Source: Opitutia bacterium (GTDB lineage: Bacteria > Verrucomicrobiota > Verrucomicrobiia > Opitutales > T3Sed10-336). Taken from it: a DNA stretch of 64,000 nucleotides. The translations under genes and the position numbers were made by a program. The stretch is from positions 128,001 to 192,000 of the forward strand of contig JBJHCF010000003.1 in the NCBI GenBank assembly GCA_050506795.1, written 5' to 3'. Below the pieces are notes generated by a model. That model was not told the DNA's origin. It was given only the letters and a program-made list of their open reading frames with translations, and did not search any database. Shown here in pieces: positions 1,298 through 33,061 of the stretch (position 1 is the stretch's first letter; the number at the start of each line of letters is the position of its first letter).

Positions 1298-3673
1298 CTA
1301 ACGGAAAAGAAAGACGCCCTGCCTTGGGGTTTCAGTTTCCGGATCCTGGTTGTTCTTTTCGTAGCGGCCTTCGTTTGCGGAATCGAAGGTCAGCAGGAGT
1401 TCATCCTCCAGGATTGCCCCGGGGTCGCCGACCGGGGCGAGAAGGAGCGTGATTTGCGCCCGGCGGGAATCGATAATCTCATAACGGTAGCTGCCGGCCT
1501 CGTCGGAAAGGGGGACTGTGATTTCACCGTCCTCACCGAACTCGATCGTGTACCTCAGGCCCGGCCCGGTTTCCTGGTCCGCGTCCTCCAGGAGGATAAG
1601 CTCGAGGCCCGGTTCGAAGGCATTAGGATCGAGCCGAAACGCGGTCACATCGTTTCTGGCATGATGAAACAAGCGTACCCAAACATCCGGAACCTGTGCG
1701 CCGTTTTCCTCGCGGTAACTGCTGAACCACTGTCGCCGCGGGAAAAGGGGAGAGTCCGGGTAAAAGTAGAACCAGCCGACCTGGTGGACGTACACGAATG
1801 GGTAGGTCTCCCCGGTCATGTAGGTCCAGCGCTGTTGGCTGTGTCGCCAGAACCAACCGGTTCCGGACCAGTAGAGCCAGCCGTGTTGATCGTGGAATAA
1901 CCAGCCCTCGACAGCATCGATATCGAAGGTGTTGTTGAGCGCCAAGGTTCCGAGCCAGCGGGATTCGACCTGTCGGCCGGCGGTCATCCGGTCCGGCTGT
2001 TCCAGATCGAAGAAGGAAGCGATTCTTTCTTCCGGGGACGAGGAGTCGGGTGGAAAGGCGGTCTGAATGGAGCCGTTGTTTCTCGGGCTGTATCGAAATT
2101 TTGGCCACGGTCCTGCAAACAGCGGGCCTTCGCCGTTGAGAGCGTAAACGCGGTGGTTCCAGGAGCCGAAATAGATGGTCCCGTCGTCGCCGATCGCCGG
2201 AGCCGACTCGATCCGGGCGGCGGTTTCAAAGGACCAGATCGGCTCGCCGGTATCGCCGTCAAGGGCGTAGAGATGCCGGTCGCTGGAGCCGATGTAAACC
2301 GTGTTGTCGGCGCCGACTGCCGCTGAGGCCTGGTCAATGACGCCGCCGGTCTCATAACTCCAGATCGTTTCACCGTTACTCGTATCTATCGCGTAGATAC
2401 GACGATCGTTAGATCCCACAAAGAGTCTTTCGCCACTTCCCAGAACCGGTGACGAGTACACGGCCCCGCCGGTTCTCACCGACCAGAGCTCTTCTCCGGT
2501 CTGTCCGTCGAGGGCGTAGAGATGCCGGTCTCCGGAGCCGATGTAAACCGTTCCGTCGCTCCCGATGGCCGGGGACGAATAAACCAGACCAGAAGTGTTG
2601 AACGTCCAGATCTCTTCACCGGTGGCGCTGTTTAAGGCGTAGACGTTGCGATCGGCCGAGCCGACGTAAAGAATTCCGTTCCGGCCGATCGCGGGTGAGG
2701 ATCTCACGTTGTCCCCGGTGGCAAAGGTCCATAATTCCTCGCCAGTCGTTCCGTCAATGGCGTAAACGTAACCGTCGGCGGAACCCACGTAAACCGCGCC
2801 CGTCATTCCGATGGCCGGCGACGACTCCACCTGTCCCCCGGTTTCGAAGGCCCACAGTTCTTCTCCCGTGGCCCCCGCGATGGCGTAAACATGCCGGTCG
2901 GAGGAACCGACATAAACCGTGCCGTCCGTACGAATGGCCGGGGTGGAATTCACCATCCACCCGGTGGGAAAGGCCCAGCGTTCCTCGCCACTGACACCGT
3001 CAAGGGCGTAAAGCCGTCCGTCGCGGGACCCGATGCAAACCGTTCCGTCGGGACCGATCGCCGCCGAGGACTGGATGCCGCTGTTCGTTTCAAAGAACCA
3101 TTTCAGCGATCCGGGCCCGATCGTGTTCGCCACTTCGGTTCTCCCGCCCATAAATTCGTCGGTATCGCGGATTACGACGGTCCAGGCGAGTATAGAGCCC
3201 ACCTCAAAAATTTCATCGACGGTATCGTAAACGAACAAGCCTTCGAAGGCGTCGCCCGGAGCGATAGTGATGTCGGTCAAGGTGGCATCGATCTCGCGGC
3301 CGGTTCCACTGAGCCTCAGGTCGACGAAGGGAATTGTCCCGGCACTTCCGCCGGAGTTTGTGATCACGAACCGGACCTCCAGGGGGTCTCTCAAATCGAT
3401 GAACACCGGACTGGTGGCCTCAGTCAGGGTAAAAAAGCCCGGCAAACCCTGAACGGATGCCGCGTGGCCTATGGGTTCGCTGTCAATCTGCGGAAAAAGA
3501 TTGGGTTCGCAGTTCGTGACCAAATCCGATCCCTCGCTCCGGATGGTTGCCGGGGACAGTATTTCATCTTCGGTGAGTAAAGACCGTTTCTCCGTAACCG
3601 GCTCGCCCGGCAGTGTCGGGGAAAGGGTCAGCAAACCGAAGGCGCTGAGGCAGAGGAGCAATGTGGATTTCAT
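1298..3673 (-). CDS. Secreted PQQ-like (BamB-type) beta-propeller repeat protein
   Basis: Signal peptide MKSTLLLCLSAFGLL; about 8 tandem ~40-aa repeats W.F.TG..V.SSPAIG.DGTVYVGS.D..LYA; Trp-rich C-terminal region. Start placed at ATG 3673 rather than at the longer ORF start. Confidence 0.85.
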   Translation of the reverse strand: MKSTLLLCLSAFGLLTLSPTLPGEPVTEKRSLLTEDEILSPATIRSEGSDLVTNCEPNLFPQIDSEPIGHAASVQGLPGFFTLTEATSPVFIDLRDPLEVRFVITNSGGSAGTIPFVDLRLSGTGREIDATLTDITIAPGDAFEGLFVYDTVDEIFEVGSILAWTVVIRDTDEFMGGRTEVANTIGPGSLKWFFETNSGIQSSAAIGPDGTVCIGSRDGRLYALDGVSGEERWAFPTGWMVNSTPAIRTDGTVYVGSSDRHVYAIAGATGEELWAFETGGQVESSPAIGMTGAVYVGSADGYVYAIDGTTGEELWTFATGDNVRSSPAIGRNGILYVGSADRNVYALNSATGEEIWTFNTSGLVYSSPAIGSDGTVYIGSGDRHLYALDGQTGEELWSVRTGGAVYSSPVLGSGERLFVGSNDRRIYAIDTSNGETIWSYETGGVIDQASAAVGADNTVYIGSSDRHLYALDGDTGEPIWSFETAARIESAPAIGDDGTIYFGSWNHRVYALNGEGPLFAGPWPKFRYSPRNNGSIQTAFPPDSSSPEERIASFFDLEQPDRMTAGRQVESRWLGTLALNNTFDIDAVEGWLFHDQHGWLYWSGTGWFWRHSQQRWTYMTGETYPFVYVHQVGWFYFYPDSPLFPRRQWFSSYREENGAQVPDVWVRLFHHARNDVTAFRLDPNAFEPGLELILLEDADQETGPGLRYTIEFGEDGEITVPLSDEAGSYRYEIIDSRRAQITLLLAPVGDPGAILEDELLLTFDSANEGRYEKNNQDPETETPRQGVFLFR

Positions 3674-4155: not shown

Positions 4156-6993
4156 ATGGGAGTGGAACGTTGTTTTCTGGCGCCGGAAATACCCCTGCCG
4201 TCATCCGCGGTGGAATTTCTGGCCCGTGAATGGACCTCCGGTCACCTGGATTTGCGGGAGTGGCTGGTGGTGGTGTCGAGCCGTCAGGCCGGGAGGCGTT
4301 TGCGCGAGGGGCTGGCGGCGCTGGCGGCCGGACGGGGGGCGGCGGTTTTCCCACCGCTGGTGGTGACGCCCGAGTTCCTGCTCACCTTCGGCGAGCAGGG
4401 AGGGAGGGTAGCGACGTCCCCGGATACTTTGCTGGCCTGGACAGAGGTTTTGCGGGGGATCGACTTTTCCTCCTTCGGCGCACTCTTTCCCGCGCCTCCG
4501 CGACGTCCCGATTTTTCCTGGGCTTTGGCCACCGGGAGGGAACTGGCCCGGGTCAAGCGGCTGTTGGCCGAGGGCGGGCTCGGTATGCGGGATGTTGAGA
4601 CGCGGGCGCCGGACGGATTTGGCGAGAACGAGCGCTGGCGCGCCCTGGCGGAGTTGGAGCGTCGTTATCGGGAAATGCTGAAAACCCATGGCCTGACGGA
4701 TCCGGACGAGGCCAAGATCGCGCGGGCGGCGAATCCGGTGACGCCGGATTCGGTGAAACGAATTGTGCTGCTGGCGGTGCCCGATCCTCTGCCGCTGGCG
4801 GTGGAGGCGCTGCAAAAGCTGAGTGAAACGCTTCCCGTCGTGGTGGCGATTCACGCCGACGCGAAGGACCGCGACGCTTTTGACGGGTGGGGGCGCCCGG
4901 TGGCGGAAGTGTGGGAGCAAAGGGTGGAGGATTGGGATTCGGGTGAGGATATGTTTTTCCCCTGCAGCGATGCAGCCGCGCAGGCGCGAACCGCCGGGCT
5001 CCTGCTCAGTGAATGCCAGGACCCGGCACGATCCGCCGCGCTGGGTGCGGCCGATCCCACGGTGATTCCATTCCTGGACCGGTCCTTGCCCCGCGATTGC
5101 GACCTGGAGGCTTACGATCCGGAAGGGCGCCCGGTGAAGGCGGAGGAACTGTATAACCTGCTCGCTTGTTTTCGGGATTTGTTGCGCGTCCGCGACTATG
5201 GATCCTGCGGTGAGTTGATTCGTTGTCCGGTGGTGATCCGTTACTTCGACCGTCTGTCCGGTTTGCCGCCGTTTCCCGCCTGGCTGCGTATTTGGGAGGA
5301 GTTCGGCGCGGACCATTTGCCCGGAGATCTCGCGGCCGCGCGTGGTTTGGCCCATGCCGAAGCGCGGAGAAATGTCGCGGTTCTGCGAATACACGAAGCC
5401 GTTGAGGAAATGCTCGGGCAATTGGATCGAGCCCCGGTCTGGGAGGCGTTGCCATCGGTGTTGCGGACGTTGCACGGCGACCGCAGTTTCCGCGAAGATG
5501 CGCCGGCGGATCGGCGTTATCTCGCAACCGCGGAAGCGATGATAGGAGTTCTGGAGGAACTGCGCGATTCACCCCTGACCGCCGAGCAGGGGGCGGTTGG
5601 CGGCGACGGCCTCGATCTGTTGCTGGGGCTTCTGGGAGACAAGCATATCGAGGAGGATCGACCGGAGACGGCGATTGACGTGCAGGGGTGGCTCGAGTTG
5701 CCCTGGGAGGAGGCGCCTTTTTTGGTCTTGACCGGCATGAACGAACACCATGTTCCGGAAACCATCGCCGGGGATCCGTTTGTTCCCGAGTCTTTGCGCC
5801 GGCCTCTGGGGTTGAAAAGCAACCGGATGCGCTTCGCCCGCGACCGTTATCTGCTGGAGTCTTTGATTAAGTGTCGACGGGAGAAAGGGAAGGTGGCCAT
5901 TCTCTTTGGAAGATTCGGACCCGAGGGAGAGCCGATGCGTCCGTCGCGCCTGCTGATGCGCTGCTCCCGCGAGGAGCTTCCTCAGCGCGTCAAACATCTC
6001 TTCGCCGACCCTCCAGCGGTTGACCGCCGGTCGGCCTGGAGTCATCCGTGGCGCTTGCGACCTGGCAGGGCGGCGGCGCCGGAAAGGATAAGCGTAACCC
6101 AATTCGGGGCCTACCTGCGCTGTCCTTTTCGATTTTACCTGTCGAATCTGCTGCGAATGGAACCGGTGGATCCTCGCAAGACGGAGATGGACGCGGCGGA
6201 ATTCGGCAGCGCCTGCCATCGGATTCTGGAAGCGTTTGGGCGGGATGAGGAGCTCCGACGCAGTCAGGACGCCGCGAAAATTCGGGCATTCTTCGACGGC
6301 GAATTGGACCGCTTTTTCCACGTTCGCTACGGTCGCGATTTACCGGTGCCGCTTGTGATCCAGAAGGAAGCGATTTCCGGGCGCCTGGCCCGGTTCGCCG
6401 AGGTACAGGCGGAGGAACGGCGGCGCGGCTGGATAATCGAGGAAGTGGAATGGCAATTCCCTGACGACAACACGCTTTGTATCGGAGGTCTGCCGGTGCG
6501 GGGAGTGATCGACCGTATTGAGCGAAACGAAACGGACGGGGCGTATCGGGTCTTGGATTACAAGACCGCCGATCAGGATCGGGAGCCGGAAAAGGATCAT
6601 TTCGTTGAGATCAAAAAAGACGAGGATGCTGAAGGGGTTCCGGAATACGCGCGTTTTGAGCTCGACGGCAAAGCCCACCGGTGGATCGGACTGCAATTGC
6701 CGCTTTATCTGTGGGCCTTGCGCGGGCGCTGCGGTGAGAAAACGGTCTGCGGCTATGTCAATTTGCCGAAAGCGGTGACCGAAACCGGGATCAGTCTCTG
6801 GCGAAACCGCTCGCGGGAGTTGGAGGAATCGGCCCATCGTTGTGCCGAAGGGGTGGTCGCGGATCTGCGGGCGGGAGTTTTCTGGCCGCCCGCTGCAAAA
6901 GTGACGTTCGATGATTTTAAAGAATTATTCTTCGGTGATATCGAAGGCCTGACCGACCCGAGTGACCTGCGCTTCCAGAACTTCGAATCATGA
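4156..6993 (+). CDS. addB: AddB/RexB-like helicase-nuclease subunit (PD-(D/E)XK nuclease)
   Basis: C-terminal SVTQFGAYLRCPFRFY, GVIDRIE, VLDYKT and LQLPLY motifs; ATGA overlap with the downstream UvrD-family gene. Confidence 0.85.
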   Translation: MGVERCFLAPEIPLPSSAVEFLAREWTSGHLDLREWLVVVSSRQAGRRLREGLAALAAGRGAAVFPPLVVTPEFLLTFGEQGGRVATSPDTLLAWTEVLRGIDFSSFGALFPAPPRRPDFSWALATGRELARVKRLLAEGGLGMRDVETRAPDGFGENERWRALAELERRYREMLKTHGLTDPDEAKIARAANPVTPDSVKRIVLLAVPDPLPLAVEALQKLSETLPVVVAIHADAKDRDAFDGWGRPVAEVWEQRVEDWDSGEDMFFPCSDAAAQARTAGLLLSECQDPARSAALGAADPTVIPFLDRSLPRDCDLEAYDPEGRPVKAEELYNLLACFRDLLRVRDYGSCGELIRCPVVIRYFDRLSGLPPFPAWLRIWEEFGADHLPGDLAAARGLAHAEARRNVAVLRIHEAVEEMLGQLDRAPVWEALPSVLRTLHGDRSFREDAPADRRYLATAEAMIGVLEELRDSPLTAEQGAVGGDGLDLLLGLLGDKHIEEDRPETAIDVQGWLELPWEEAPFLVLTGMNEHHVPETIAGDPFVPESLRRPLGLKSNRMRFARDRYLLESLIKCRREKGKVAILFGRFGPEGEPMRPSRLLMRCSREELPQRVKHLFADPPAVDRRSAWSHPWRLRPGRAAAPERISVTQFGAYLRCPFRFYLSNLLRMEPVDPRKTEMDAAEFGSACHRILEAFGRDEELRRSQDAAKIRAFFDGELDRFFHVRYGRDLPVPLVIQKEAISGRLARFAEVQAEERRRGWIIEEVEWQFPDDNTLCIGGLPVRGVIDRIERNETDGAYRVLDYKTADQDREPEKDHFVEIKKDEDAEGVPEYARFELDGKAHRWIGLQLPLYLWALRGRCGEKTVCGYVNLPKAVTETGISLWRNRSRELEESAHRCAEGVVADLRAGVFWPPAAKVTFDDFKELFFGDIEGLTDPSDLRFQNFES

Positions 6994-19166: not shown

Positions 19167-22100
19167 GTTTCCAAGCCACTTGGGTGCGATAGCGACAACC
19201 GGGCCAAGGCGGCATGGGACCGGCTCAAGAGGTTTCCAAGCCACTTGGGTGCGATAGCGACGGATTGCCGGAAGGGCTGGCGGCCATGTATTATGGAGTT
19301 TCCAAGCCACTTGGGTGCGATAGCGACGCTTCCGGGACTTGCTGCTGCTGATCCGTCTCTTGAGTTTCCAAGCCACTTGGGTGCGATAGCGACGGGAAAC
19401 GCATACCTGTTTAACTTTTCGTGCGAGGATGTTTCCAAGCCACTTGGGTGCGATAGCGACGATGCAGCAGTCGATCCCCGGGATAGGGCAATACGTGTTT
19501 CCAAGCCACTTGGGTGCGATAGCGACCGAACGCGGGCTATTTGCAGACGCTGAAGCGTACGGGTTTCCAAGCCACTTGGGTGCGATAGCGACGGCCGGCC
19601 GCTACTCACCAAAGCCGGAGCGCTGAAAAGTTTCCAAGCCACTTGGGTGCGATAGCGACCGTTTTCCCTTCGCGCCGGGAGGGGCGGGTTTCACCGTTTC
19701 CAAGCCACTTGGGTGCGATAGCGACACGACCCCGGCCGCGTTCCGCGTCAATGCGGTAAACGTTTCCAAGCCACTTGGGTGCGATAGCGACCCTGGAGTA
19801 CAAGCGTGCTGCCTGGCATCCCGCAACGTTTCCAAGCCACTTGGGTGCGATAGCGACGCAGGAACTGCGTCAGGCGGTGGCGGCGGATCCGTTGTTTCCA
19901 AGCCACTTGGGTGCGATAGCGACACCGACGAGGATTTCGTGCGCTGGGATGGCGCGATCGTTTCCAAGCCACTTGGGTGCGATAGCGACGCAACTTTCGT
20001 AGTCAGGGCGGGTTGGGTCTTGGAGCGTTTCCAAGCCACTTGGGTGCGATAGCGACGATTCGGGGTTGTTCCTGCTCTTTCTGGAGAGTTCGGGTTTCCA
20101 AGCCACTTGGGTGCGATAGCGACGGCCTCGGAAGGGAAAGGATGGATGAGAATTAGGGAGGTTTCCAAGCCACTTGGGTGCGATAGCGACGATTCGGGGT
20201 TGTTCCTGCTCTTTCTGGAGAGTTCGGGTTTCCAAGCCACTTGGGTGCGATAGCGACTTACCGACGATTTCGACCATGACGACGGCACGTTCACGTTTCC
20301 AAGCCACTTGGGTGCGATAGCGACGGTCCAAAAGGTGGTTTCTTTGCGCTGGCGGGCCAAGTTTCCAAGCCACTTGGGTGCGATAGCGACGGCGCCATCG
20401 CCGAGTGGATGAATGTCCAGAGCGAAGTTTCCAAGCCACTTGGGTGCGATAGCGACCCGGAACATTTGATGGGGCGCGATCCGACATTGAGATGTTTCCA
20501 AGCCACTTGGGTGCGATAGCGACGAGCCATACAAGGGAACCCTGGCACTGACGGTTCTAGTTTCCAAGCCACTTGGGTGCGATAGCGACCCGGCCGTCGC
20601 CGCGATGGACCAGGCGCTCACCAACAGTTTCCAAGCCACTTGGGTGCGATAGCGACGGAGAGCGTCGGCGGCCCGGTAGTAGAGATCCGTATGTTTCCAA
20701 GCCACTTGGGTGCGATAGCGACGACGAGCAGCCCATCACCCCGCAAAACCTTTCCGAGGTTTCCAAGCCACTTGGGTGCGATAGCGACAGGTTGTCCACC
20801 ACCGGCGCGTCGCCGCCCGTCGGGGTTTCCAAGCCACTTGGGTGCGATAGCGACTTCCCGCTCCATGGCGGGCGGATCGGCGAGAGTTGCAGTTTCCAAG
20901 CCACTTGGGTGCGATAGCGACCGTGCTGATGCCCACCAAAACGGCCAGGATCTGGTGTTTCCAAGCCACTTGGGTGCGATAGCGACCACGCACCTCCCTC
21001 AGTGTTTTGTAGGCGCTCCTGGGTTTCCAAGCCACTTGGGTGCGATAGCGACATCCCGAGGTAAATGAGATTGCGCAGTTCTGAAGGAGTTTCCAAGCCA
21101 CTTGGGTGCGATAGCGACCCCACCTGGTCATTCGGCCGCGAGGGCAACCAGATAAGTTTCCAAGCCACTTGGGTGCGATAGCGACCTGAGAGCGGCGAGG
21201 ACGAAGAGGAAGAGGATTACAGTTTCCAAGCCACTTGGGTGCGATAGCGACGGAGATTCGGTGAGATCGTAATTCAAACTCTCCAATGTTTCCAAGCCAC
21301 TTGGGTGCGATAGCGACATCGAGGAGAGGCGACGGACGGACGGGCAATACACGTTTCCAAGCCACTTGGGTGCGATAGCGACCCTGGCCGCCGATCTCCG
21401 CGAGGCGATCGATCACCGTTTCCAAGCCACTTGGGTGCGATAGCGACCAAGTGAGAGAGGATGCGGCTCTGCGTCAACAAATGTTTCCAAGCCACTTGGG
21501 TGCGATAGCGACGACCGGTTTCGGGGTGCCCTGGTTGCCGGTGATCGGGGTTTCCAAGCCACTTGGGTGCGATAGCGACGAGCCTTCCGTTGCTCACGAA
21601 GGATCGGCTCAATCTGTTTCCAAGCCACTTGGGTGCGATAGCGACGGCAAACTCGCTCGGATTCGCGCCGCCATTGCCGGAGTTTCCAAGCCACTTGGGT
21701 GCGATAGCGACGCGGTCGCGGGCGTGTTTGCGGGTGAGTTGTTCGAGTTTCCAAGCCACTTGGGTGCGATAGCGACGGTGAAAAACCCGCCTCTAAACGG
21801 GCAGGAACGCAAGTTTCCAAGCCACTTGGGTGCGATAGCGACCCGCGCAACCCTCGGCGTCATCATCCCAGACCTTCATCGTTTCCAAGCCACTTGGGTG
21901 CGATAGCGACTCGGAACGATGCTCGCCCTGACCCGAACCGTTTCGCGTTTCCAAGCCACTTGGGTGCGATAGCGACCCTGGGAGGTTTTGCGGAGTTTTG
22001 AGTGGCTGTCTGTTTCCAAGCCACTTGGGTGCGATAGCGACTACGGGTCCGGGGATCGGTCTGGGCGATTACCTGGGTTTCCAAGCCACTTGGGTGCGAT

Positions 22101-22306
22101 AGCGACTCAAACAGGCGGAGCCGGTCGACTCTCCCGGATCGGTGTTTCCAAGCCACTTGGGTGCGATAGCGACGCGCGAAACGTCGGGGACATGCGGGGA
22201 GGCGGGAGGAGTTTCCAAGCCACTTGGGTGCGATAGCGACTTCGGCAGCTTGGCTCGGGATCGAATTGTTTCTTTTGTTTCCAAGCCACTTGGGTGCGAT
22301 AGCGAC
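19167..22306 (-). CRISPR. CRISPR array, 48 repeats / 47 spacers; repeat GTCGCTATCGCACCCAAGTGGCTTGGAAAC (30 nt), spacers about 35-38 nt
   Basis: Repeats counted by hand from 19167 to 22277 (start positions); orientation from the 3' GAAAC end and the leader next to cas2. Confidence 0.98.
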
Positions 22307-24418: not shown

Positions 24419-24448
24419 GGCCATGTTTTTAGAGGAACCTGGCCATGC
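24412..24448 (+). promoter_or_regulatory. Putative phd-vapC promoter/operator overlapping the cas4 start codon
   Basis: TTGACA at 24412-24417; perfect palindrome ACATGGCCATGT at 24415-24426; second TGGCCATG at 24440-24447; the -10 element is weak. Confidence 0.55.
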
Positions 24449-24449
24449 G

Positions 24450-24785
24450 ATGCAAGTGAAAACCGCGGAGTTAAAAAACAACCTGAGCAAGTATCTGCGA
24501 CGAGTGCGGGAGACCGGGGAGTCGATAACCGTTTGCGACCGGGACAGGCCGGTGGCGGTTCTTTCGCCGTTGCCGGCGGAGCAAGTCGAGGTGGTGGAGA
24601 ATCGCGAATGGCTGAAGGAGCGGGAACGGATATTGAAGAAAGCGAAGCGGTTCGGCGTTCGCCTCACCATGCCCAAAAAGAAGCCGCGACCGATGCGGGA
24701 ACTCGGGATTTATCCGACGGTGGCGCCGGACGGGCGGACGGACATCAAGACGATCGACCTGGTGCGCGGCGGACGCGATTATTGA
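24450..24785 (+). CDS. Phd/YefM-family antitoxin
   Basis: MQVKTAELKNNLSKYLRRV.ETGESITVCDRDRPVAVLSP is a typical prevent-host-death N-terminus; upstream of a PIN gene. Confidence 0.88.
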   Translation: MQVKTAELKNNLSKYLRRVRETGESITVCDRDRPVAVLSPLPAEQVEVVENREWLKERERILKKAKRFGVRLTMPKKKPRPMRELGIYPTVAPDGRTDIKTIDLVRGGRDY

Positions 24786-24791
24786 GGAGCG

Positions 24792-25193
24792 ATGGTAACC
24801 TACTGGGACACGAGCGCGCTGCTCGCCTTGCTTTTCGAAGAAGTGCATTCCGCTCGGGCAAAGGCGGCCAACGACCGGACTGATTCCTTCCTTGCCTGGC
24901 GATGGATCGAAGTTGAGGCGCGCCTCGGGTGCGACCGACGAAACGCAAATCCGATCCAGCTGGATTTTCTCGACCGGTGGTTGAGCAACGCGGAATACGC
25001 AAATCTTCAGGAAGACGACTATCCCGTACTGATCGACCTCGGTCTCCGCCACAAACTCCGCGCTGCCGACGCCGGACACCTGCACTCCCTTCTCCAGGTC
25101 CGCCGCCTCTTTCCCGAGATCGCTTTTGTCTGCTTCGACGAAGCCCTGACCGCCGCCGCGAAGGCGGAAGGAGTTGCGGTTTGGGAGGGGTGA
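24792..25193 (+). CDS. vapC: PIN-domain (VapC-family) toxin
   Basis: YWDTSALL, E, LRAADAGHL, FVCFDEAL..AA..EG acidic PIN motifs; GAGGAG RBS. Confidence 0.88.
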   Translation: MVTYWDTSALLALLFEEVHSARAKAANDRTDSFLAWRWIEVEARLGCDRRNANPIQLDFLDRWLSNAEYANLQEDDYPVLIDLGLRHKLRAADAGHLHSLLQVRRLFPEIAFVCFDEALTAAAKAEGVAVWEG

Positions 25194-25207: not shown

Positions 25208-27562
25208 TTATATTACGATTCCTGGGCCTCCCACAGGCGTTTCAGAAAATTCCAAACCTCGATCAGCACTGTAAGGCTGGTCCGCCAACATAATTCGGTG
25301 TTCGGAACAGCGTGTGATCAATTGCTTGGCGCTCAGCATCCTGAAATGACCGTGCGAAATTGGAACCGTTAACATCCCGGCCTCAAGGTATCTTCCTTCG
25401 GCATGAAGCTCCAGGAATTCCTGGAAGAGAGATGATGGAAGAATTTCAGTTCCGTCGAAAAGGGCTTCGAACTGCTCAACGGCATCTTCGTCGGACTGGA
25501 ACGCGATCAGCCGCTTCGAACCACAAATGCTCTCGAACGCTTCAATACCATTTTCAATACACTCTTCGATTATTTGCCGTTCCGGAGCGTAGATTTCATC
25601 CAGCCATTCCGACACCGTTGCTTCATCCAAGATTTCCCCATCATGTTTTTTTAAGTGTTCGACCGTCCGATGAAGCAGAGCCTCCTGCCCATAAGGACGT
25701 CTCCAATCCACAGGTTCATTGAAAACGATGACAGGGCGGTGATCGTGTAACCGCCGGCGATTAACCCGCCCAAAACGCTGAAAGAGAGCTTCCAATGGGG
25801 CGGGTTCGGTGAACAGAACATCAAAGTCCACGTCCAGGCTTACCTCGACAACTTGCGTAGCTGCCACAATCAACCCCTTTCCGTCCTGAGAATTCGTGCA
25901 TTTTAAAACGTAATCCTCTTTTTCAAAGCGATCACGTGCGGTAAACCGGCTATGAAGCAGCAACACTTCCAGTTGATCCTCTGATTCGCGAAGCGCTGAA
26001 AAAACCTCTTGCGCCGTCTTAACCATATTGGCGACGACCAGAACTTTCATTCCTAGCCGGGCTTTTATCAGAATTTCTTGTATTGATGCCTCAGCCGTTA
26101 CTGGACCACTTATGACCGTCATGCGATGCCGCTTGAATTCTTCGAATAATGCAGGCGCTGCTTCCACTTTCGCGCATGGGGCTAGTGCCTCGGCGCAGCG
26201 TTCGTTGAGCCAAGTCGGCATGGTAGCCGACATGCAAAGGATCCGGCCCTGGCACTGCTCGCGTAGAGCTCGAAGCAGCCCGAGTATCAGGCCAAGGCGC
26301 TTCGGCTCGTAGCCATGAATTTCGTCGAGGATGAACCGGCCATGTCGCAGCATAAGCCATTGGGCTTCGTAACCGGGCAGCCGAAATGCCGCTCGCAGGA
26401 GCTGGTAAGGAGTGGCGACCATCACGGGGTTTGTGGCCAATTTCGAAAGCGAACGACTTTGCTTTGCCCGATGAGACGCTGTAAGAAAGTCCACACCCTG
26501 TTCGTCCAGGTCCCGATAAAGCGCAGCCGTGGCGCGACTGTGTAAAAGAGCGGTTTGTGCTTCGCCAAATTCGTATCTGTCACGAATTCGTTGATACATG
26601 GCATTGATGCTCGCTTGAAACGGAAGGACATAAAATAGTGATGGCGCACCCGCCGCCGTTTCCAGATTCCGTTTTGCCCAGAATAGAGCCGCTTCGGTCT
26701 TGCCACTTCCCGTCGGAGCTCGCAGGAGGACGTTTCCTTCGATTTCTCCACACTCGCGTTGGTGTTCAAACCAGTCGGTCCGTGTGCGCGCCAAGAATTC
26801 GATTCTCTCCAAATTTGGCTTGGAAAGCGTCTCGGCACCAGCACTGGCGAGACGGTCGGCTTCGAGGATTAGCCCGCGCAGGACTAGAAGCTGACGACGG
26901 AGACGGGGGTTACCGTTCCTGTTGCGAAAAGACGATTTCTGTTCTTTGAAAAGGCAATCGAAAATTCTCAAAGCCGCTTGGATCAGTTCAGGTGCTTTCT
27001 GAAAGAAACCAGCAAGCTCCTTTTGGCTGAAAGCTAAGCACGTCGCCGGAAGATCTCCGACAACGGCAGATCGAGCGGTGTCTGCCTCTTCCACCGTCCA
27101 CCGCCAAAGAGCGTCGATAATATCGTAGGAGATTTCCGAGCGCCATCTTTCATCTATAACGGATTCGGAAATCTCCGGTTGATCGGTTATGTAAGTTCGT
27201 TCGATAAAATCATGGTCGCGGTGATGGGAAACGACCGCCGCGGCCGCGAACTTGAACTCTTCGCTGTCCGGCTCAAACACCCAAGCTAAGAACGGCAGAG
27301 ACAAAACCTCATGGCGATATCCCCAAGGGGTCTTCGTCCGCAGTTGGCGCTGGAACCCGGGAGCCGCTTTCCCGAAATCATGAAACCAAACTGCCCAAGA
27401 GACGATTTGCCATAGTTGCGGGAGTTCGATCTCGTCCGCTAAAGCCGGTAATCGCTGGCGCAACTGCCCCAAGCGACGCATTACTTGCCGGGTATGTTCA
27501 GGTAGCGTCTCGCCGCCTGGCACAGGGCTTTTGGCGTAGAACCTTTCTGCCTCAATCGGCAT
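25208..27562 (-). CDS. cas3: CRISPR-associated helicase/nuclease Cas3 (HD + SF2 helicase)
   Basis: TLPEHT, HDFGKA, HEVLS, SHH, ADRLAS, APTGSGKTE, LDEIH, MSAT, HSRF, ATQVVEVSLDVDFD, QRFGRVNR. Confidence 0.97.
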   Translation of the reverse strand: MPIEAERFYAKSPVPGGETLPEHTRQVMRRLGQLRQRLPALADEIELPQLWQIVSWAVWFHDFGKAAPGFQRQLRTKTPWGYRHEVLSLPFLAWVFEPDSEEFKFAAAAVVSHHRDHDFIERTYITDQPEISESVIDERWRSEISYDIIDALWRWTVEEADTARSAVVGDLPATCLAFSQKELAGFFQKAPELIQAALRIFDCLFKEQKSSFRNRNGNPRLRRQLLVLRGLILEADRLASAGAETLSKPNLERIEFLARTRTDWFEHQRECGEIEGNVLLRAPTGSGKTEAALFWAKRNLETAAGAPSLFYVLPFQASINAMYQRIRDRYEFGEAQTALLHSRATAALYRDLDEQGVDFLTASHRAKQSRSLSKLATNPVMVATPYQLLRAAFRLPGYEAQWLMLRHGRFILDEIHGYEPKRLGLILGLLRALREQCQGRILCMSATMPTWLNERCAEALAPCAKVEAAPALFEEFKRHRMTVISGPVTAEASIQEILIKARLGMKVLVVANMVKTAQEVFSALRESEDQLEVLLLHSRFTARDRFEKEDYVLKCTNSQDGKGLIVAATQVVEVSLDVDFDVLFTEPAPLEALFQRFGRVNRRRLHDHRPVIVFNEPVDWRRPYGQEALLHRTVEHLKKHDGEILDEATVSEWLDEIYAPERQIIEECIENGIEAFESICGSKRLIAFQSDEDAVEQFEALFDGTEILPSSLFQEFLELHAEGRYLEAGMLTVPISHGHFRMLSAKQLITRCSEHRIMLADQPYSADRGLEFSETPVGGPGIVI

Positions 27563-28277
27563 TGGAGAAATGGTGAAACTCAATCAAGTGAGGTTCCCCG
27601 GGCGACAGCGCCGCATCCGCCCAGAGTTCCAGCGATCCATCAAGGCAAACAGCGCGATTTGGTCCGGCCAATAGAAATTGGGAGACGGCGATGTACAAGC
27701 CCCACGATCTATTTTCCCGATTCGTAGGGTCCATCACCCTTGGCATTCGGAGCATTTCACCGGCGGGGAGAACCTCGGCCATCTCAGGAGAAAACAATCC
27801 GGGACCCAAGCGACCATGGTTCGCCTTTTCCAGCGTAACCTTCGTGACCGTTCTGATCGAAGCCAGATCCTGAGATCGTCCCAAAACCGGCGGATAGCGA
27901 GGGGAACGAAAAGCATTTATCCAGAAATCCAGAGATTCACCCGCCAAATACAACGTCAATCGGGGAAAGATCAACCATTCGCGCGGCAGGATATTGCTGT
28001 TCCCCTCGAGGTTGAATTCTTTCGATGGACCCCGGGTCGATTTGTTTGGCTCCAAAAACCAAATTTTTTCGATATCGTCGATCCGCTCACCTTCGCATTC
28101 AAAGCGATAAGCGAATGAAATACTGGCCGGGTCCGGAGGGATTCCGGCAGCACAGGTCAACAGACCGTAAATTGTCGAAGGAGGCGGCATCGGGAATGTT
28201 GGCTGCCGCCCAATCAGAAAATGCGGAAAGCGAAACGAGGCGGTAGGGCCGCTAATTTCAATGCGCAAGGCATTCAT
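27552..28277 (-). CDS. cas5: CRISPR-associated protein Cas5 (Cas5t-like)
   Basis: TASFRFP..PTFPMPPPSTIYGLL, LGRSQDLA. Confidence 0.93.
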   Translation of the reverse strand: MNALRIEISGPTASFRFPHFLIGRQPTFPMPPPSTIYGLLTCAAGIPPDPASISFAYRFECEGERIDDIEKIWFLEPNKSTRGPSKEFNLEGNSNILPREWLIFPRLTLYLAGESLDFWINAFRSPRYPPVLGRSQDLASIRTVTKVTLEKANHGRLGPGLFSPEMAEVLPAGEMLRMPRVMDPTNRENRSWGLYIAVSQFLLAGPNRAVCLDGSLELWADAALSPGEPHLIEFHHFSNAD

Positions 28278-28288
28278 ACTCTCTTAAA

Positions 28289-29362
28289 TCAATTGAACCA
28301 ATCCGGGTTTTTATCGACTAAATCGGCGAGACGCTCAAAGGCATGCCGCGGATGGCAGAGTTCCAGTCCATGGGGGAAACTGCTCTGAAGTTTTTCGAGG
28401 TTCGATTTGAGTTTCAGACGGCCTTCCTCGCAATATCCGGTCGTCCATCCGACGAATACGGGAGAAAGAGTTTGATCTCCCCACACTTCCCCGGCTTCCC
28501 GGAGTGAATCGAGCGCGGGGGTAATCTCTCCGTTTTCCATTGCCTGAACGCTGTATTGGAAAGGGTTGTTCGCACCCTTGAACGCGGCGGCAATGACGAT
28601 GACCGGCGATACGTCCGTATAATGCAATCCCAGTTTGGCACCACCAGACACATGCGGCACAGCTCTGAGCAGCATTCCGACACGGTTTTGCCTTGTTTTG
28701 ATAGGAAGCCGGAATGCCTTATTCGGTTCGTCGTTTTCAAGGTTCTTTTCTTCGCAGAGCTTCCTTCGTTCCTTATCCAGATTCAGATGCCCGGTCTGGT
28801 TAAGGTAGGAAAACGAGCCGGAGGTCGAAAGGTCGAGGGAAAACAATCCTTTTAGCGCGGTCTTGTAGAACTGATGCTCGTGCGGCACCGCATCGCCTTC
28901 ATGCCGGCTCATGGTTCCGAAGTCAGAGGTGATTCCATCGGTCATTCCGACTAAAGTTCCCACGCGAAAGGGAGAAACACGCGTTATGGTGACTTTCGCC
29001 TCAACCGGGGTTGCGCCCACCATCGTTGCCCGGCTTTCAGCTGCCTCGACCTTCTTTCCTGGCGCTCGCATATAACCGAAAAGGTCGTCGTCACTATAAC
29101 GGATAGGATTGGCATCGGTGTAGGCTACCTTTGCCTCTCGATAAATCGGGGCTCGTTCCCATTCGTCCGGGTAGAGCCTCTCGACGGTCTCGCGAAGCCA
29201 CCGTCGATAAGCTTGGGCGGAAACATAGGGATATTGTTTGCGACCGACACGAAGAAACTTGGTTGCGACAGCATTCTCCATTGTCGTGCCAGACGCTGCG
29301 CCAGCATTGTTCAATGCGCTCCCAGGGGCGTCGATAATTTGAATTCCGGTTATATGGGCCAT
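28289..29362 (-). CDS. cas7: CRISPR-associated protein Cas7 (Cst2/DevR family)
   Basis: SALNNAG, YPYVSAQAYRRWLR, NPIRYSDDDLFGYMRA, RVSPF, GGAK..HYTDVSP. Confidence 0.93.
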   Translation of the reverse strand: MAHITGIQIIDAPGSALNNAGAASGTTMENAVATKFLRVGRKQYPYVSAQAYRRWLRETVERLYPDEWERAPIYREAKVAYTDANPIRYSDDDLFGYMRAPGKKVEAAESRATMVGATPVEAKVTITRVSPFRVGTLVGMTDGITSDFGTMSRHEGDAVPHEHQFYKTALKGLFSLDLSTSGSFSYLNQTGHLNLDKERRKLCEEKNLENDEPNKAFRLPIKTRQNRVGMLLRAVPHVSGGAKLGLHYTDVSPVIVIAAAFKGANNPFQYSVQAMENGEITPALDSLREAGEVWGDQTLSPVFVGWTTGYCEEGRLKLKSNLEKLQSSFPHGLELCHPRHAFERLADLVDKNPDWFN

Positions 29363-29411: not shown

Positions 29412-30896
29412 TCAACGAAGCTCATCGATTGTTTCAATTGCAATTTCGTCCGGGGCGACAACCTCATCGTCTTCCTCACGTCTGAGCGCGGGCCAATTCT
29501 TGAGTTGCTCAAGGCAGCGTATGCGGATCATATCACGCGCTAGGAAAAATCCTCCGTGAGGAACGTTTTCCTCGTCCTCGAAGATCTCCGTAAAATCGTC
29601 CAGGGTGAGGAGAAGTTTGGGTTCGTTCTTCAACAGCTTCAGCGCGGTCCGAACAAGAATTGCGCGGAACGCCGTATAAGAATTGGTGGACTGAGTCCGT
29701 CCCATGATCTGGCTGAAGAGCTTCTTATCGTTTGTTTTCTGGATGATGCCAGAAAGTTCATCGGCCAGGAGTCGTATTTTCTCAATTTGTTCTTTTTTCA
29801 TAAGGATTACAATTCGCAGAAAGACGGAAAGTAGATCCCAGAGCTGAATAGGAGTCGCATCCAGATTCTTTCGGTACCCCGCCAGGTTTTCGGCATAACT
29901 TTGAAAATAGCGTCGAAGGAAGGCTTGGACATTGGCGGGAAGGCTGTAGAGATCATCGTATAAGGAGTTGTTGGAAACCCGATTTTTCTCGTTGGTCAAA
30001 ACATCGTCGGAAGACTCCGTTTTACCCTTCCACCAAAACGCATTGACAAAGGTCAGCCACGACTGCCGAAGGTCTGCCATGTTCACTCGGATTAGGAATC
30101 GTGAGACCATGGGCTGCAGCGAATAAATATCGATGGCGCAACCCTGACTGCTGTTCGACAGAAAGTAGAGAATTACGCCGGGGCGTTTAGTCGAACGCGA
30201 CAAATCCCGTGTGAGTTTGGATTCCGCTGCGAAAATATCATCCAATCGTTGGGCTACACGAGTTTTTTGACCCTTCCTGTCGGGTAACGCTGTTCCATGA
30301 AGTCGAGCTTTCGCGAGATCGGTTTGTTGCTGTTCATACCAACCGAACAAGAAGGAAAGCAGGAGATCTTTGCTTTCCATGGCGACAACCGGCATTCGTC
30401 CGCTTACCACGGGAAGTACTTGAGGAATCGCGAGCAGACAGCCATAGGCGATTCCTGAAAGTGGAATCTCCGCACGGCCGCTAGGATAGAAATTCACCTG
30501 GTTTCGCCCCTGAACCATTGGAAATTGATCCCTCGCCGCCCGGATGACCGCAGGAAACTCCTGGAAGAAAGCACAACGATCAACCGTCGTGTCTTCGATG
30601 TCCGACAGACTGTTCACGAACCCAAACGCTTCCTCAATCGCCTTCTTTCGTTTTTCCCCTTTGAATGCCGGATTATCGAAGCTGTTTGTGGTAAAGAGGA
30701 TTCCAGTTGGCTTCTTCAACAAGCCATCGAGATAATCCTCTTTGATGCGGTTCATCGTTTTTACCCAATCAGTCCAAGTCACCTCGCAAGGATTTCCCAC
30801 CTCACAAGCCAAAACGACTGAGGCCACGCCCGTGTCGATTAGGGGCTCGCCAGTCCACCGGAGGAACTTAGAGCGGTTGGTTCTGGTATCGGTCAT
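29412..30896 (-). CDS. cas8: Cascade large subunit Cas8 (Cst1, Cas8a1/b1-like)
   Basis: N-terminal WTGEPLIDTG, FPMVQG..NFYP, YFLSN motifs; lies directly upstream of cas7-cas5-cas3. Confidence 0.8.
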   Translation of the reverse strand: MTDTRTNRSKFLRWTGEPLIDTGVASVVLACEVGNPCEVTWTDWVKTMNRIKEDYLDGLLKKPTGILFTTNSFDNPAFKGEKRKKAIEEAFGFVNSLSDIEDTTVDRCAFFQEFPAVIRAARDQFPMVQGRNQVNFYPSGRAEIPLSGIAYGCLLAIPQVLPVVSGRMPVVAMESKDLLLSFLFGWYEQQQTDLAKARLHGTALPDRKGQKTRVAQRLDDIFAAESKLTRDLSRSTKRPGVILYFLSNSSQGCAIDIYSLQPMVSRFLIRVNMADLRQSWLTFVNAFWWKGKTESSDDVLTNEKNRVSNNSLYDDLYSLPANVQAFLRRYFQSYAENLAGYRKNLDATPIQLWDLLSVFLRIVILMKKEQIEKIRLLADELSGIIQKTNDKKLFSQIMGRTQSTNSYTAFRAILVRTALKLLKNEPKLLLTLDDFTEIFEDEENVPHGGFFLARDMIRIRCLEQLKNWPALRREEDDEVVAPDEIAIETIDELR

Positions 30897-30897
30897 G

Positions 30898-30988
30898 GTT
30901 TGGCGTTGTCCGCATTGACGGGAAAGGAGCTTAGTTCTTTTTTAATGAGAAACATGTTTTCAAGCCACTTTAAGGTACGATAGATTAC
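30898..30988 (-). ncRNA. Putative crRNA-like regulatory RNA (mini-CRISPR: degenerate repeat, 36-nt spacer, highly degenerate second repeat)
   Basis: 30956-30988 minus strand GTAATCTATCGTACCTTAAAGTGGCTTGAAAAC versus array repeat GTCGCTATCGCACCCAAGTGGCTTGGAAAC; spacer 30920-30955; GTC...AAAC remnant 30898-30919; spacer seed matches 31209-31223. Confidence 0.75.
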
Positions 30989-31173
30989 TATGGCTCCTTT
31001 CCCGTCAGATCGCGGCAAATCTTTCGTGCAAGGCGTTCTGGTATCTCGTTATGGCGAGGGACAGCTTGCCATTCTCCTGTCTTCGTATTCTCCCAGAGGC
31101 TGTGTCTTGACCCTTCACGTCGGAGGCGACATCCATGGCGACGAAGAAACCGGAGAAGTAGCGCTCTCTTCAT
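30988..31173 (-). CDS. hicA: HicA-family mRNA interferase toxin
   Basis: 61 aa basic protein, GC.L.REGSRHS.W.N..TG...VPRH.EI...LARKICRDL; conserved His retained. Confidence 0.9.
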   Translation of the reverse strand: MKRALLLRFLRRHGCRLRREGSRHSLWENTKTGEWQAVPRHNEIPERLARKICRDLTGKEP

Positions 31174-31195
31174 CCTGACTTGAAAACCTTTCCGT

Positions 31196-31236
31196 TTGAA
31201 AAATCCAATTTAATGAGTAACATTGGATCTTTTCAA
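31196..31236 (-). promoter_or_regulatory. Putative sigma70 promoter for hicA and downstream cas genes, containing the mini-CRISPR target and an inverted repeat
   Basis: Minus strand TTGAAA (31231-31236), 18 nt, TAAATT (31207-31212); CCA PAM at 31224-31226; protospacer 31209-31223. Confidence 0.6.
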
Positions 31237-31289
31237 TCGAACGCAACCAGACAAGTCAAGCACTTCTTGGGGTTAAGTCACCGTTATTA

Positions 31290-31502
31290 TCAGGAGATGG
31301 CTTCGATAACCACGGACTCGGTCTTCGCTCTGCCGATCTCCGTGTTTCTTCTTTCTTCGAAGATTAAGTCGATCGCCGCCTTCAGATCTTCGATACACTC
31401 TTCGCGTGTCTTTCCCATCCCGTTGGCAGCGGGCACTTCGGCACACGTGGCTGTCCACCAATCGCCTTCCTCGCGTAATATGGCTGTGAAAGTTTGGATC
31501 AT
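31290..31502 (-). CDS. hicB: Short HicB-family antitoxin without DNA-binding domain
   Basis: FTAILREEGDWWTATCAEVPAANGMGKTREECIEDLKAAIDLI matches the HicB partial RNase H fold; GGAG RBS. Confidence 0.88.
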   Translation of the reverse strand: MIQTFTAILREEGDWWTATCAEVPAANGMGKTREECIEDLKAAIDLIFEERRNTEIGRAKTESVVIEAIS

Positions 31503-31556
31503 AGTTCTCCATTACAATGGCTGATTCATTCGCGGGAAGCAAATGGATTTCCTTCA

Positions 31557-31808
31557 TCAACCCCAATCCTGTGCGCGGTTCAATTTTTTGAGGATCCGAT
31601 CAATGCGAGGATCGGACGGGTCGGGTTCTGGAACGGATAGCCGGCCAACCCATTTCCTTACGAAGCTGCCGTCGAATTCGCCTTCCTCCACAAAAGCCCG
31701 AAGATCCTTCTCGACTACTGCGGAAAGGGAAATTCCTTCATTCCGTGCCATCAATCGGGCTTTGCGAAGCACCTCCGGATCGATTCTAACGGTGAGATTC
31801 TTTTTCAT
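31557..31808 (-). CDS. Ribbon-helix-helix antitoxin-like protein (DUF6364/CopG-like), no adjacent cognate toxin
   Basis: MKKNLTVRIDPEVLRKARLMARNEGISLSAVVE is an RHH signature. Confidence 0.7.
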   Translation of the reverse strand: MKKNLTVRIDPEVLRKARLMARNEGISLSAVVEKDLRAFVEEGEFDGSFVRKWVGRLSVPEPDPSDPRIDRILKKLNRAQDWG

Positions 31809-31847
31809 TGGAGTAAGAATCAAGTGCATTTGCCTTCCTGAACATTT

Positions 31848-32714
31848 TCATCCCGCGTCCACCGCTCCGAAGCCCATGGAGTTCATTTCGCCGAGGCCGG
31901 CGGACCAGATGAGGCGCTGGAGTGGGATTGGGGCGGTGACTTTGACCGGTGCGGCCCAACTGCGGACGGGGATATTTTTGATGTGAAAGAGCCGGGTTCG
32001 GGCCTTGCCCGGATCGGCGAGTTCCACCTGGACGTCCTGGCGGGCGGCCCAGGCTTTGGTTTCCGTCGGAGTCGCGCCGTTGAGACCGGCCCAGCGGGCT
32101 GCAATGTCGGGACGGCCGGTTTCGTCAGTGAAACGAAGCCATTTGTGGAAGAGGTTTTGACAGATCAGTTCCGCGCAGTCGTGGCCTTCGGCCGGATTGT
32201 CGGGCAGGGCGTAGTGCTTGGCGCCGGTTTCCCGGTTTTTCCAGCTCGTCACGATCGACGCTTCTCGGACGGGTTGCCAGAACATTGTTTCCCGGAAGGC
32301 GGGTTGGGGGATGACTATGGCGGATTTGATCAGGAAGTCGGAGGCGGCCAATCGAAGATTTCCGGCGGCGAGGAGTCCTTCACTGACCGCCGATAACAAT
32401 TCCGGCCAGGGGGAAAACAGGCGAAACGTCGCTTCGCCTTCGATGAGGAGCCCAGGGCGGGTTGTTTCGCCGTTTTCGTTGTCAGGCAAGTGAGATCCTT
32501 TTCCGCCGCGATTGACCGTCATGCGACGGCACCGGAGCGGCGAAAATCCGAATAGTTTGATCCGGTCTTTATGCTGTTCGCCGTGGTGCAAATCGGCGGC
32601 GAACTCCGGCTGAACAGTTTCAAGGGATTGATACAATGCGGCCGAAAGAAACGGATAATAGGAAAACGGCAGGTTCGCCGGTGTGGTAGGGGCTATGGTA
32701 ACAGCGAATTGCAT
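31848..32714 (-). CDS. cas6: CRISPR-associated endoribonuclease Cas6
   Basis: LPFSY, LHHG...KLFGFSPL, C-terminal Gly-rich GLGEMNSMGFG loop. Confidence 0.92.
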   Translation of the reverse strand: MQFAVTIAPTTPANLPFSYYPFLSAALYQSLETVQPEFAADLHHGEQHKDRIKLFGFSPLRCRRMTVNRGGKGSHLPDNENGETTRPGLLIEGEATFRLFSPWPELLSAVSEGLLAAGNLRLAASDFLIKSAIVIPQPAFRETMFWQPVREASIVTSWKNRETGAKHYALPDNPAEGHDCAELICQNLFHKWLRFTDETGRPDIAARWAGLNGATPTETKAWAARQDVQVELADPGKARTRLFHIKNIPVRSWAAPVKVTAPIPLQRLIWSAGLGEMNSMGFGAVDAG

Positions 32715-33061
32715 GCGGAGATGACGCCTGGTGGAGTTAGCAATTGACGGGCTTAATCGAGGAAGTGCGAGGTGGCCGGAATCGAAACGACAAGATAGCC
32801 TCAACCAAGTCAAACGATTTCGAACGCCATCGGTTCCTGCCGACATCATTGCGCCGGACCGAGGCCCACCGAATCGTTTTTGTGGATGGGGGTTGAACTC
32901 TTGGGTGGGGCCGCTATCGAGGGGTTCGGCGTAGAGTGAACCTGTGTCACGGCGGACACAGGTGGATCTTTTCATTTGGGTGCCTTGAAAATAGTGAGAG
33001 CCGGATGCTCGCGTTCCCGGTGGTGATTTTTTTGGTCGCGGACCACGAAAGCGCGGGTCGG

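Follow-up and report, generated by a model that had tools for sequence, protein, structure and literature searches.

The locus described here raises the question of why the two genes of a hicBA toxin-antitoxin (TA) pair stand apart from each other within a cas operon, and whether a CRISPR-like guide acting on the space between them could place the toxin gene under the control of the CRISPR-Cas system itself. The DNA analysed, called the window below, is a stretch of 64,000 nucleotides from an Opitutia bacterium; coordinates are those of the window, and features lie on its minus strand unless otherwise stated.

Gene organization of the type I-B locus

The CRISPR-Cas system in the window is of type I-B, of the Cas8b1/Cst2 kind, with Cas8b1, Cas7/Cst2, Cas5b, Cas3, Cas1b and the array all found. 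Along the minus strand the order is cas6, a DUF6364/ribbon-helix-helix (RHH) gene, hicB, a 116-bp gap, hicA, 91 bp, cas8b1, cas7/Cst2, cas5b and cas3. The first gene of the operon, cas6 (31848..32714), matched PF21350 and PF01881 above their cut-offs, and hicB would be transcribed from a promoter upstream of it. The RHH gene (31557..31808), encoding 83 aa counted from its second ATG, lies 54 bp upstream of hicB and matched PF19891 with 34 bits and PF05534 with 26 bits, both above cut-off; related loci lacking hicBA have it too (contigs of runs X2, X3, X4 and X6). Matches above cut-off to TIGR01908, TIGR02585 and TIGR01895 identified cas8b1/Cst1 (29412..30896), cas7/Cst2/DevR (28289..29362) and cas5b (Cas5t; 27552..28277), respectively, and cas3 (25208..27583) is an uninterrupted open reading frame with HD and helicase domain matches. 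Beyond cas3 follow a phd-vapC pair on the opposite strand (24426-25193, plus strand; a second TA pair, with Phd/YefM and PIN domain matches), then cas4, cas1, cas2 and the cognate array, in which a repeat search located 48 exact 30-nt repeats (19167..22306). One array spacer occurs twice, at 20057-20093 and 20191-20227. Elsewhere in the window, 2221-3074 holds six copies of a repeat of about 113 nt at a spacing of 123 nt, probably a protein repeat. The proposal of the initial annotation that the TA module sits inside the cas operon was borne out, with hicB and hicA lying between cas6 and cas8b1 on the same strand.

Cas8 was not found in the 60 related genomes searched, nor Cas7 in 400 genomes of the phylum, and a search of 351 genomes of another phylum for Cas7 gave one partial match; the nearest Cas7 proteins were about 60% identical, except for one copy at 98%. 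The CRISPR system would appear to have arrived horizontally.

Identity and pairing of HicB and HicA

Both open reading frames of the pair are intact. hicA (30988..31173) encodes a 61-aa protein of an mRNA-interferase toxin family, assigned by a profile match to PF07927 (34.8 bits; cut-off, 27), and has no clear ribosome-binding site. Its His24, which we take to be the catalytic histidine, is invariant across 28 aligned relatives. The single HicA sequence matched no solved structure, but a profile of the 28 sequences matched E. coli HicA 6HPB, with the histidines aligned. hicB (31290..31502) is preceded by a GGAG ribosome-binding site and encodes 70 aa of a class 2 antitoxin, an assignment resting on profile matches and on the modelled HicA complex. 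As a single sequence HicB gave a weak match to DUF7387 and nothing more; a profile of HicB with 27 relatives matched solved HicB proteins over the N-terminal part, roughly 50 positions long, and PF15919 was matched by 5/28 members of the HicB set. Compared with Pfam, neither HicB nor the 28-member set matched an HTH or RHH family, so that the short HicB lacking such a domain ahead of hicA, as first described, was confirmed.

By the account of Gerdes 2024 (PMC10865869), the hicBA order with a small HicB (63-103 codons) that has no DNA-binding domain defines class 2, the commonest hicBA class, the regulation of which is presented there as an open question. The pair in the window resembles this class in gene order, in the small HicB without a DNA-binding domain and in sizes, which fall within the range. 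The idea that CRISPR control had replaced antitoxin autoregulation could thus not be upheld: as the commonest class, on that account, has a HicB with no DNA-binding domain, there would be no antitoxin autoregulation for CRISPR to replace.

A structure model of HicA with HicB scored 0.75, the best control reaching 0.01; the score used as the mark was attained by 51/78 solved pairs and 2/108 mismatched pairs. The model runs agreed in 100% of contacts, with a partner pLDDT of at least 74. The model supports binding of HicA by HicB, and since similar complexes have already been solved, it indicates likeness only. A second hicAB pair in the genome, with hicA first and the genes overlapping or adjacent, is located at L002:1492-1907 (G000 contig C19).

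The gap between hicB and hicA

We confirmed the reported split: hicB (31290-31502) and hicA (30988-31173) are separated by 116 bp (31174..31289, given without strand), with a G+C content of 38% vs 59% genome-wide. For comparison we used 31 loci of HicA relatives with 44-64% identity, 29 obtained by a phylum search and two by a genome scan; L006 and L007, with weak partial matches, were left out. An intact HicB gene lay upstream in 29/31, and in all 29 it overlapped hicA, by -4 in 28 and by -1 in one; of the remaining two loci, one is on a contig that ends 104 nt upstream and the other has a broken pair. Two of the 29 overlapping relatives have a damaged hicA. The initial annotation had named the same gap in close non-CRISPR homologues as grounds against its reading, and none of the 29 relatives with an intact HicB gene, chosen by HicA identity and not by cas context, had it. 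In the class 2 table of Gerdes, a hand count of parts 2-3 of the 190-row sheet found a gap of at least 100 bp in 1/69 rows (125 bp). Class 2 hicBA genes are mostly close or overlapping (PMC10865869), a usual and not an absolute property, whereas the present pair is separated by 116 bp that include a candidate site of CRISPR control. Judged by these comparisons, the gap is anomalous against close relatives. An apparent relic of an ATGA overlap at the hicA start was discarded as weak, any Met-Lys start yielding ATGA.

A CRISPR-like guide and its target

Directly after the hicA stop codon lies a solitary degenerate CRISPR repeat (30956..30985), identical to the array repeat at 18/30 positions and at 14 of the last 15, which would leave the usual 8-nt 5' handle, cognate to the array. 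It is followed by a 36-nt pseudo-spacer (30920..30955), the first 15 nt of which match the gap by genome comparison. The target (31209..31226) consists of a CCA PAM at 31226-31224 and a 15-nt protospacer at 31223-31209, in which 14/15 bases match the guide, with a single mismatch at position 6. This was the best match of the guide seed in the 4.94-Mb genome, and it is 268 bp away. Among the 12 genome sites, the guide itself excepted, with a seed run of at least 11, the gap target has the longest run and is the only one with a CCN PAM. Both CCA and CCT are tested PAMs in the type I-B system of C. difficile, as reported in PMC6079278; from this and from the CCN motif of ten related guide-target pairs (see below), CCA may be read as the cognate PAM of the target, the interference PAM itself being predicted.

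At the expected place of a second repeat the identity is 9/30, and none could be recognised; this candidate was ruled out, and the same stretch is also present in a cassette-free relative. As described for CrePA (10.1101/2024.01.05.574328), most creA genes carry two repeats, and one-repeat forms are known from the account in 10.1101/2024.12.27.630466. Of the "mini-CRISPR" target first placed in the gap, the target thus stood, with its CCA PAM and 14/15 match, and the mini-CRISPR did not, the repeat being solitary with no recognisable second copy. The array spacers matched no phage, and none had a convincing match in the organism's own genome from which a PAM could be read; exact copies of the target, or of the handle joined to the seed, were likewise not found among viral contigs. 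Near 127632 of G000:C8 (minus strand), in an AT-rich region distant from the cas locus, 11 nt match the 3' end of the repeat. We consider it very likely that the guide-target pair is real and that it is a regulator.

Promoter, palindrome and transcription unit

The promoter that the initial annotation placed in the gap fared unevenly. A consensus scan found a candidate sigma-70 promoter, TTGAAA-18-TAAATT (31207..31236; -35 box, 31236-31231; -10 box, 31212-31207), which lies in AT-rich DNA, matches the consensus at 9/12 positions and has its -10 box inside the protospacer; such sites in 2.4 kb, however, numbered 3 vs 0.9 +/- 1.3 in shuffles, which is not significant. A crude and partial genome-wide tally revealed a preference for 17-nt spacing after TTGAC (0.134 vs 0.075 on the reverse strand) and little after TTGAA, and therefore does not support the candidate. 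TTGACT at 31259 was rejected as a -35 box, as no -10 match occurs 16-19 nt from it. Between the candidate promoter and cas8, we found neither a terminator nor a further promoter; the candidate would therefore not be the toxin-only internal promoter once suggested, since it would also feed the guide and cas8-cas7-cas5-cas3. The placement of hicB upstream of the target, outside the unit reading hicA-guide-cas8-cas7-cas5-cas3, held good.

The target is surrounded by an operator-like imperfect inverted repeat (31196..31236, given without strand) with arms at 31236-31222 and 31209-31196 and a weaker outer pair of arms at 31260-31252 and 31182-31174; the self-complement score of the gap was reached by 2/1000 shuffles. 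With the DUF6364/RHH gene and this palindrome at hand, control of the gap by a protein is also possible. A 12-mer in the left arm (31224-31235) recurs in the genome only at 32963-32974, about 250 bp upstream of cas6, and is possibly a shared operator or promoter element. The palindrome also yields a plus-strand promoter-like site (31196-31223), antisense into hicB.

A stem enclosing the repeat and seed

A perfect 15-bp stem can form between 31007-30993, the final codons of hicA, and 30930-30916, made up of the guide's 3' part and cas8 leader sequence (30916..31007 overall; fold z-score, -4.46), so that the repeat and seed are enclosed. Such stems number 38 genome-wide, many of them, as judged by eye, being recurring repeat elements. 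Enclosing stems of 10 and 14 bp were observed in two related loci, L056 and L087, where they are followed by T-rich runs; in all, 3/4 guides on the cas8 strand and 0/7 on the opposite strand had one. By tying up the 3' part of the guide, the stem could hinder its loading.

Similar guides in related I-B loci

Related I-B loci were searched ahead of cas8 for a handle plus spacer with a local target, the handle pattern being of our own choice; the shuffles used for comparison exchanged blocks of two letters, which does not strictly keep the dinucleotide content. Among 80 metagenome loci, 65 had enough sequence, and 7/65 carried a guide with a local target, all with CCN; shuffles gave 0.1 CC pairs per replicate of 66 loci, and a stricter scan retained 5/65 pairs along with two non-CC pairs. 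From 36 genome matches, of which 35 were fetched and 32 usable, six pairs were obtained, three with CCN, and none appeared in 10 shuffle replicates. Guide-target pairs with a CCN PAM thus occurred upstream of cas8 in 10/97 related I-B loci. Nine of these ten, CreR-like and with a CCC or CCT PAM, are in Cas8b1/Cst2 I-B loci L056, L075, L080, L085, L087, L118, L125, L139 and L140, and the tenth is in L063 (see below).

No toxin gene was tied to the target in the other nine CCN pairs, as assessed by a Pfam scan of 83 upstream ORFs in the metagenome loci; this fits plain cas autorepression. HicA and HicB profiles run over 115 other I-B loci detected one HicA, in L063, and a split pair in 0/115, so the split arrangement is not conserved across several genomes. 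In L063 (3885-4530), cas8 and an unsplit hicAB point away from each other; a guide with a solitary repeat is found at 4490 and its target at 4464. The target is flanked by CCT, has one extra mismatch at position 9, and lies about 95 bp ahead of hicA. L063 may be a second candidate for a CRISPR-repressed HicAB, and CRISPR-like control near hicAB thus appears twice, with the pair split once.

Origin and distribution of the cassette

Contigs from other sequencing runs represent related loci at about 81-98% identity. No contig of runs X2 to X6 covers 30965-31594, and the joins across this region were used instead. In X6, 168 letters link the RHH gene to 30924 on a contig of 321 nt (depth, 2.7); in the window, 171 letters lead from the same point of the RHH gene to a direct repeat at 31538, the partner copy of which starts at 30924. 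The left copy (31527..31538) matches the right copy (30913..30924) at 10/12 positions, and the right copy is the start of the cas8 leader common to the cassette-free relative. The two copies would border a 614-bp cassette, the border being taken from the X6 contig, that comprises hicB, the gap, hicA, the repeat and most of the spacer, and X6 would represent the empty site. The cas6-cas8 junction is 409 vs 889 nt in X2/X4 (480 shorter than in the window) and 168 vs 785 nt in X6. Between cas6 and the RHH gene the X2/X4 contigs have a further insert, with 441 letters vs 113 at 31738-31852. One X2 contig of 184 nt, with four differences, covers the pseudo-spacer as far as 30954. No copy of the cassette DNA was found in 11 family genomes; a search with the HicA protein returned one relative, and none from plasmids. 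Because close relatives are without the cassette, selection on it cannot be read from them. Junctions of this kind are described by Shmakov et al. as gene-shuffling hot spots.

A possible regulatory circuit and its alternatives

Taken together, the arrangement may represent a circuit of the CreR/CrePA/CRISIS type with the target between antitoxin and toxin, in which HicB buffers leaky expression and HicA overshoots when Cascade fails; we give this reading an even chance. One of its parts, the repression of hicA together with the cas genes, is probable. From the sequence we infer four steps, namely promoter activity, processing, repression and toxin excess. The gap promoter would yield one transcript of hicA, the guide, cas8, cas7, cas5 and cas3, from which Cas6 would excise the guide. 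Guide-loaded Cascade would then bind the match, which at 15 nt would be too short for Cas3 to be licensed, and would cover the -10 region; it may also stop read-through from the cas6 promoter. A polymerase coming from cas6 would reach the PAM side first, which is the blocking side for dCas9 and dCas12a according to PMC9758054, and Cascade may block in a like manner. hicA and the downstream cas genes would thereby be repressed and the upstream hicB would stay on, making the circuit a negative feedback loop. Mild de-repression, as when ordinary crRNAs out-compete the guide, would produce more Cascade and a little HicA, absorbed by HicB; complete loss of Cascade binding, through an anti-CRISPR or loss of cas genes, would let HicA exceed HicB and arrest growth, so that the pair would guard the CRISPR system. 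Against this guarding role we count the single occurrence, the modest promoter, the lack of a clear ribosome-binding site at hicA and the absence of a toxin at nine targets. In particular, hicA neither overlaps hicB nor has a clear ribosome-binding site, and hicB has one, so that HicA may never exceed HicB. An elaboration in which the antitoxin sets the threshold of an anti-anti-CRISPR switch, and the 15-bp stem lets translation of the toxin free the guide or the cas8 leader as a second feedback loop, seems to us unlikely.

The data may instead be explained by a guide that, like any ordinary CreR, autorepresses the cas8 operon, with hicB and hicA as passengers flanking the cas8 promoter, HicA being poorly translated or always neutralised and loss of Cascade raising cas expression only. 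We regard this as a serious possibility that falls somewhat short of even. The missing ribosome-binding site of hicA would suit it, as would the 9/10 related CCN pairs that lie shortly before cas8 and for which no toxin gene was found, and the variability of the cas6-cas8 junction among close relatives, a hot spot of gene shuffling in the terms of Shmakov et al. However, both genes are intact and are modelled as a pair, the split requires that the usual -4 overlap was broken exactly at the gene junction, and L063 links a guide target to hicAB. A rather improbable alternative is that the gap serves mainly as the operator of a protein repressor, most likely the DUF6364/RHH protein, in a three-gene module of regulator, antitoxin and toxin to which the CRISPR match is secondary. 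An RHH gene that exceeds the cut-off of PF05534, a HicB family, 54 bp before hicB, a significant palindrome over the candidate promoter and the left-arm 12-mer recurring only about 250 bp upstream of cas6 are consistent with such a module, but related loci that have neither hicBA nor the gap carry the RHH gene as well, the guide-target match with a clade-typical PAM would need a separate explanation, and both controls could act together. That the whole is a decaying or chance assembly, with a guide not made or not loaded and a gap without regulatory role, is very improbable: its single occurrence, the lack of a second repeat and the locking of the 3' part of the guide in a stable stem would agree with decay, but the best target genome-wide is at a distance of 268 bp, has a CCN PAM and is mismatched at position 6, shuffles yield 0.1 such pairs per replicate of 66 loci, and a near-identical pseudo-spacer is present in another run (X2).

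Comparison with known systems

The circuit proposed here, with the target between antitoxin and toxin, resembles CRISIS (10.1101/2024.12.27.630466) as described there in having a target before a non-cas gene in a cas operon, followed by a solitary repeat and then the effector genes, and in its match of about 15-16 nt with a position-6 mismatch and a cognate PAM. The tests of CRISIS were made in type I-C and covered Nezha, Gabija and eight further systems, all regulated as whole units, whereas the present locus is of type I-B (Cas8b1/Cst2), has a type II toxin as cargo and keeps the antitoxin outside the regulated unit; furthermore, the CRISIS start sites reported are 37-46 bp past the target, whereas the candidate -10 box here is inside it. 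As in CrePA (10.1101/2024.01.05.574328) and CreTA (PMC8501985), the predicted role of a crRNA-like RNA is to repress a toxin gene lying between cas genes, and loss of Cascade would release the toxin. In those accounts, however, the toxins are a KilA-C protein (CreP) and an RNA (CreT), and no protein antitoxin accompanies either, whereas here the toxin is HicA, its cognate HicB is kept and one repeat is recognisable. The degenerate repeat between cas6 and cas8, with a spacer matching the promoter region of the cas8 operon, is shared with CreR and cas autorepression as presented in 10.1101/2023.03.10.532045, which also describes co-repression of the toxin and cas8 by CreA in H. hispanica; unlike CreR, the present locus has a toxin gene between target and cas8, which would hence be co-regulated.

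TA genes in CRISPR loci with predicted upstream targets, enriched in I-B among others and with relatives that have empty sites, are described as mini-array-regulated cargo in 10.1101/2023.03.03.530964, and guide-regulated TA cargo in general is thus already published. The Cas13a-HicAB of Leptotrichia (PMC13448076) likewise ties a HicAB module functionally to a CRISPR system, but that system is of type VI and, as reported, acts by protein-protein and RNA-protein contacts and not by guide-directed transcriptional repression. Our search, in literature mostly outside the subscription journals, found no report of a CRISPR target placed between the genes of a toxin and its antitoxin; supplements may list HicA cargo. 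To our knowledge, the CRISPR-repressed toxins so far described have no protein antitoxin.

The cassette measures about 600 bp, and as a single case it carries limited weight. If the circuit with the target between antitoxin and toxin is real, a guide target placed between two genes would be a simple route from a common TA pair to a CRISPR guard, and, with the antitoxin kept, the ordinary ups and downs of a promoter that also serves cas8 would not be lethal. It would also give one candidate answer to the question, raised for class 2 in PMC10865869, of how a hicBA pair is regulated when its antitoxin lacks a DNA-binding domain.
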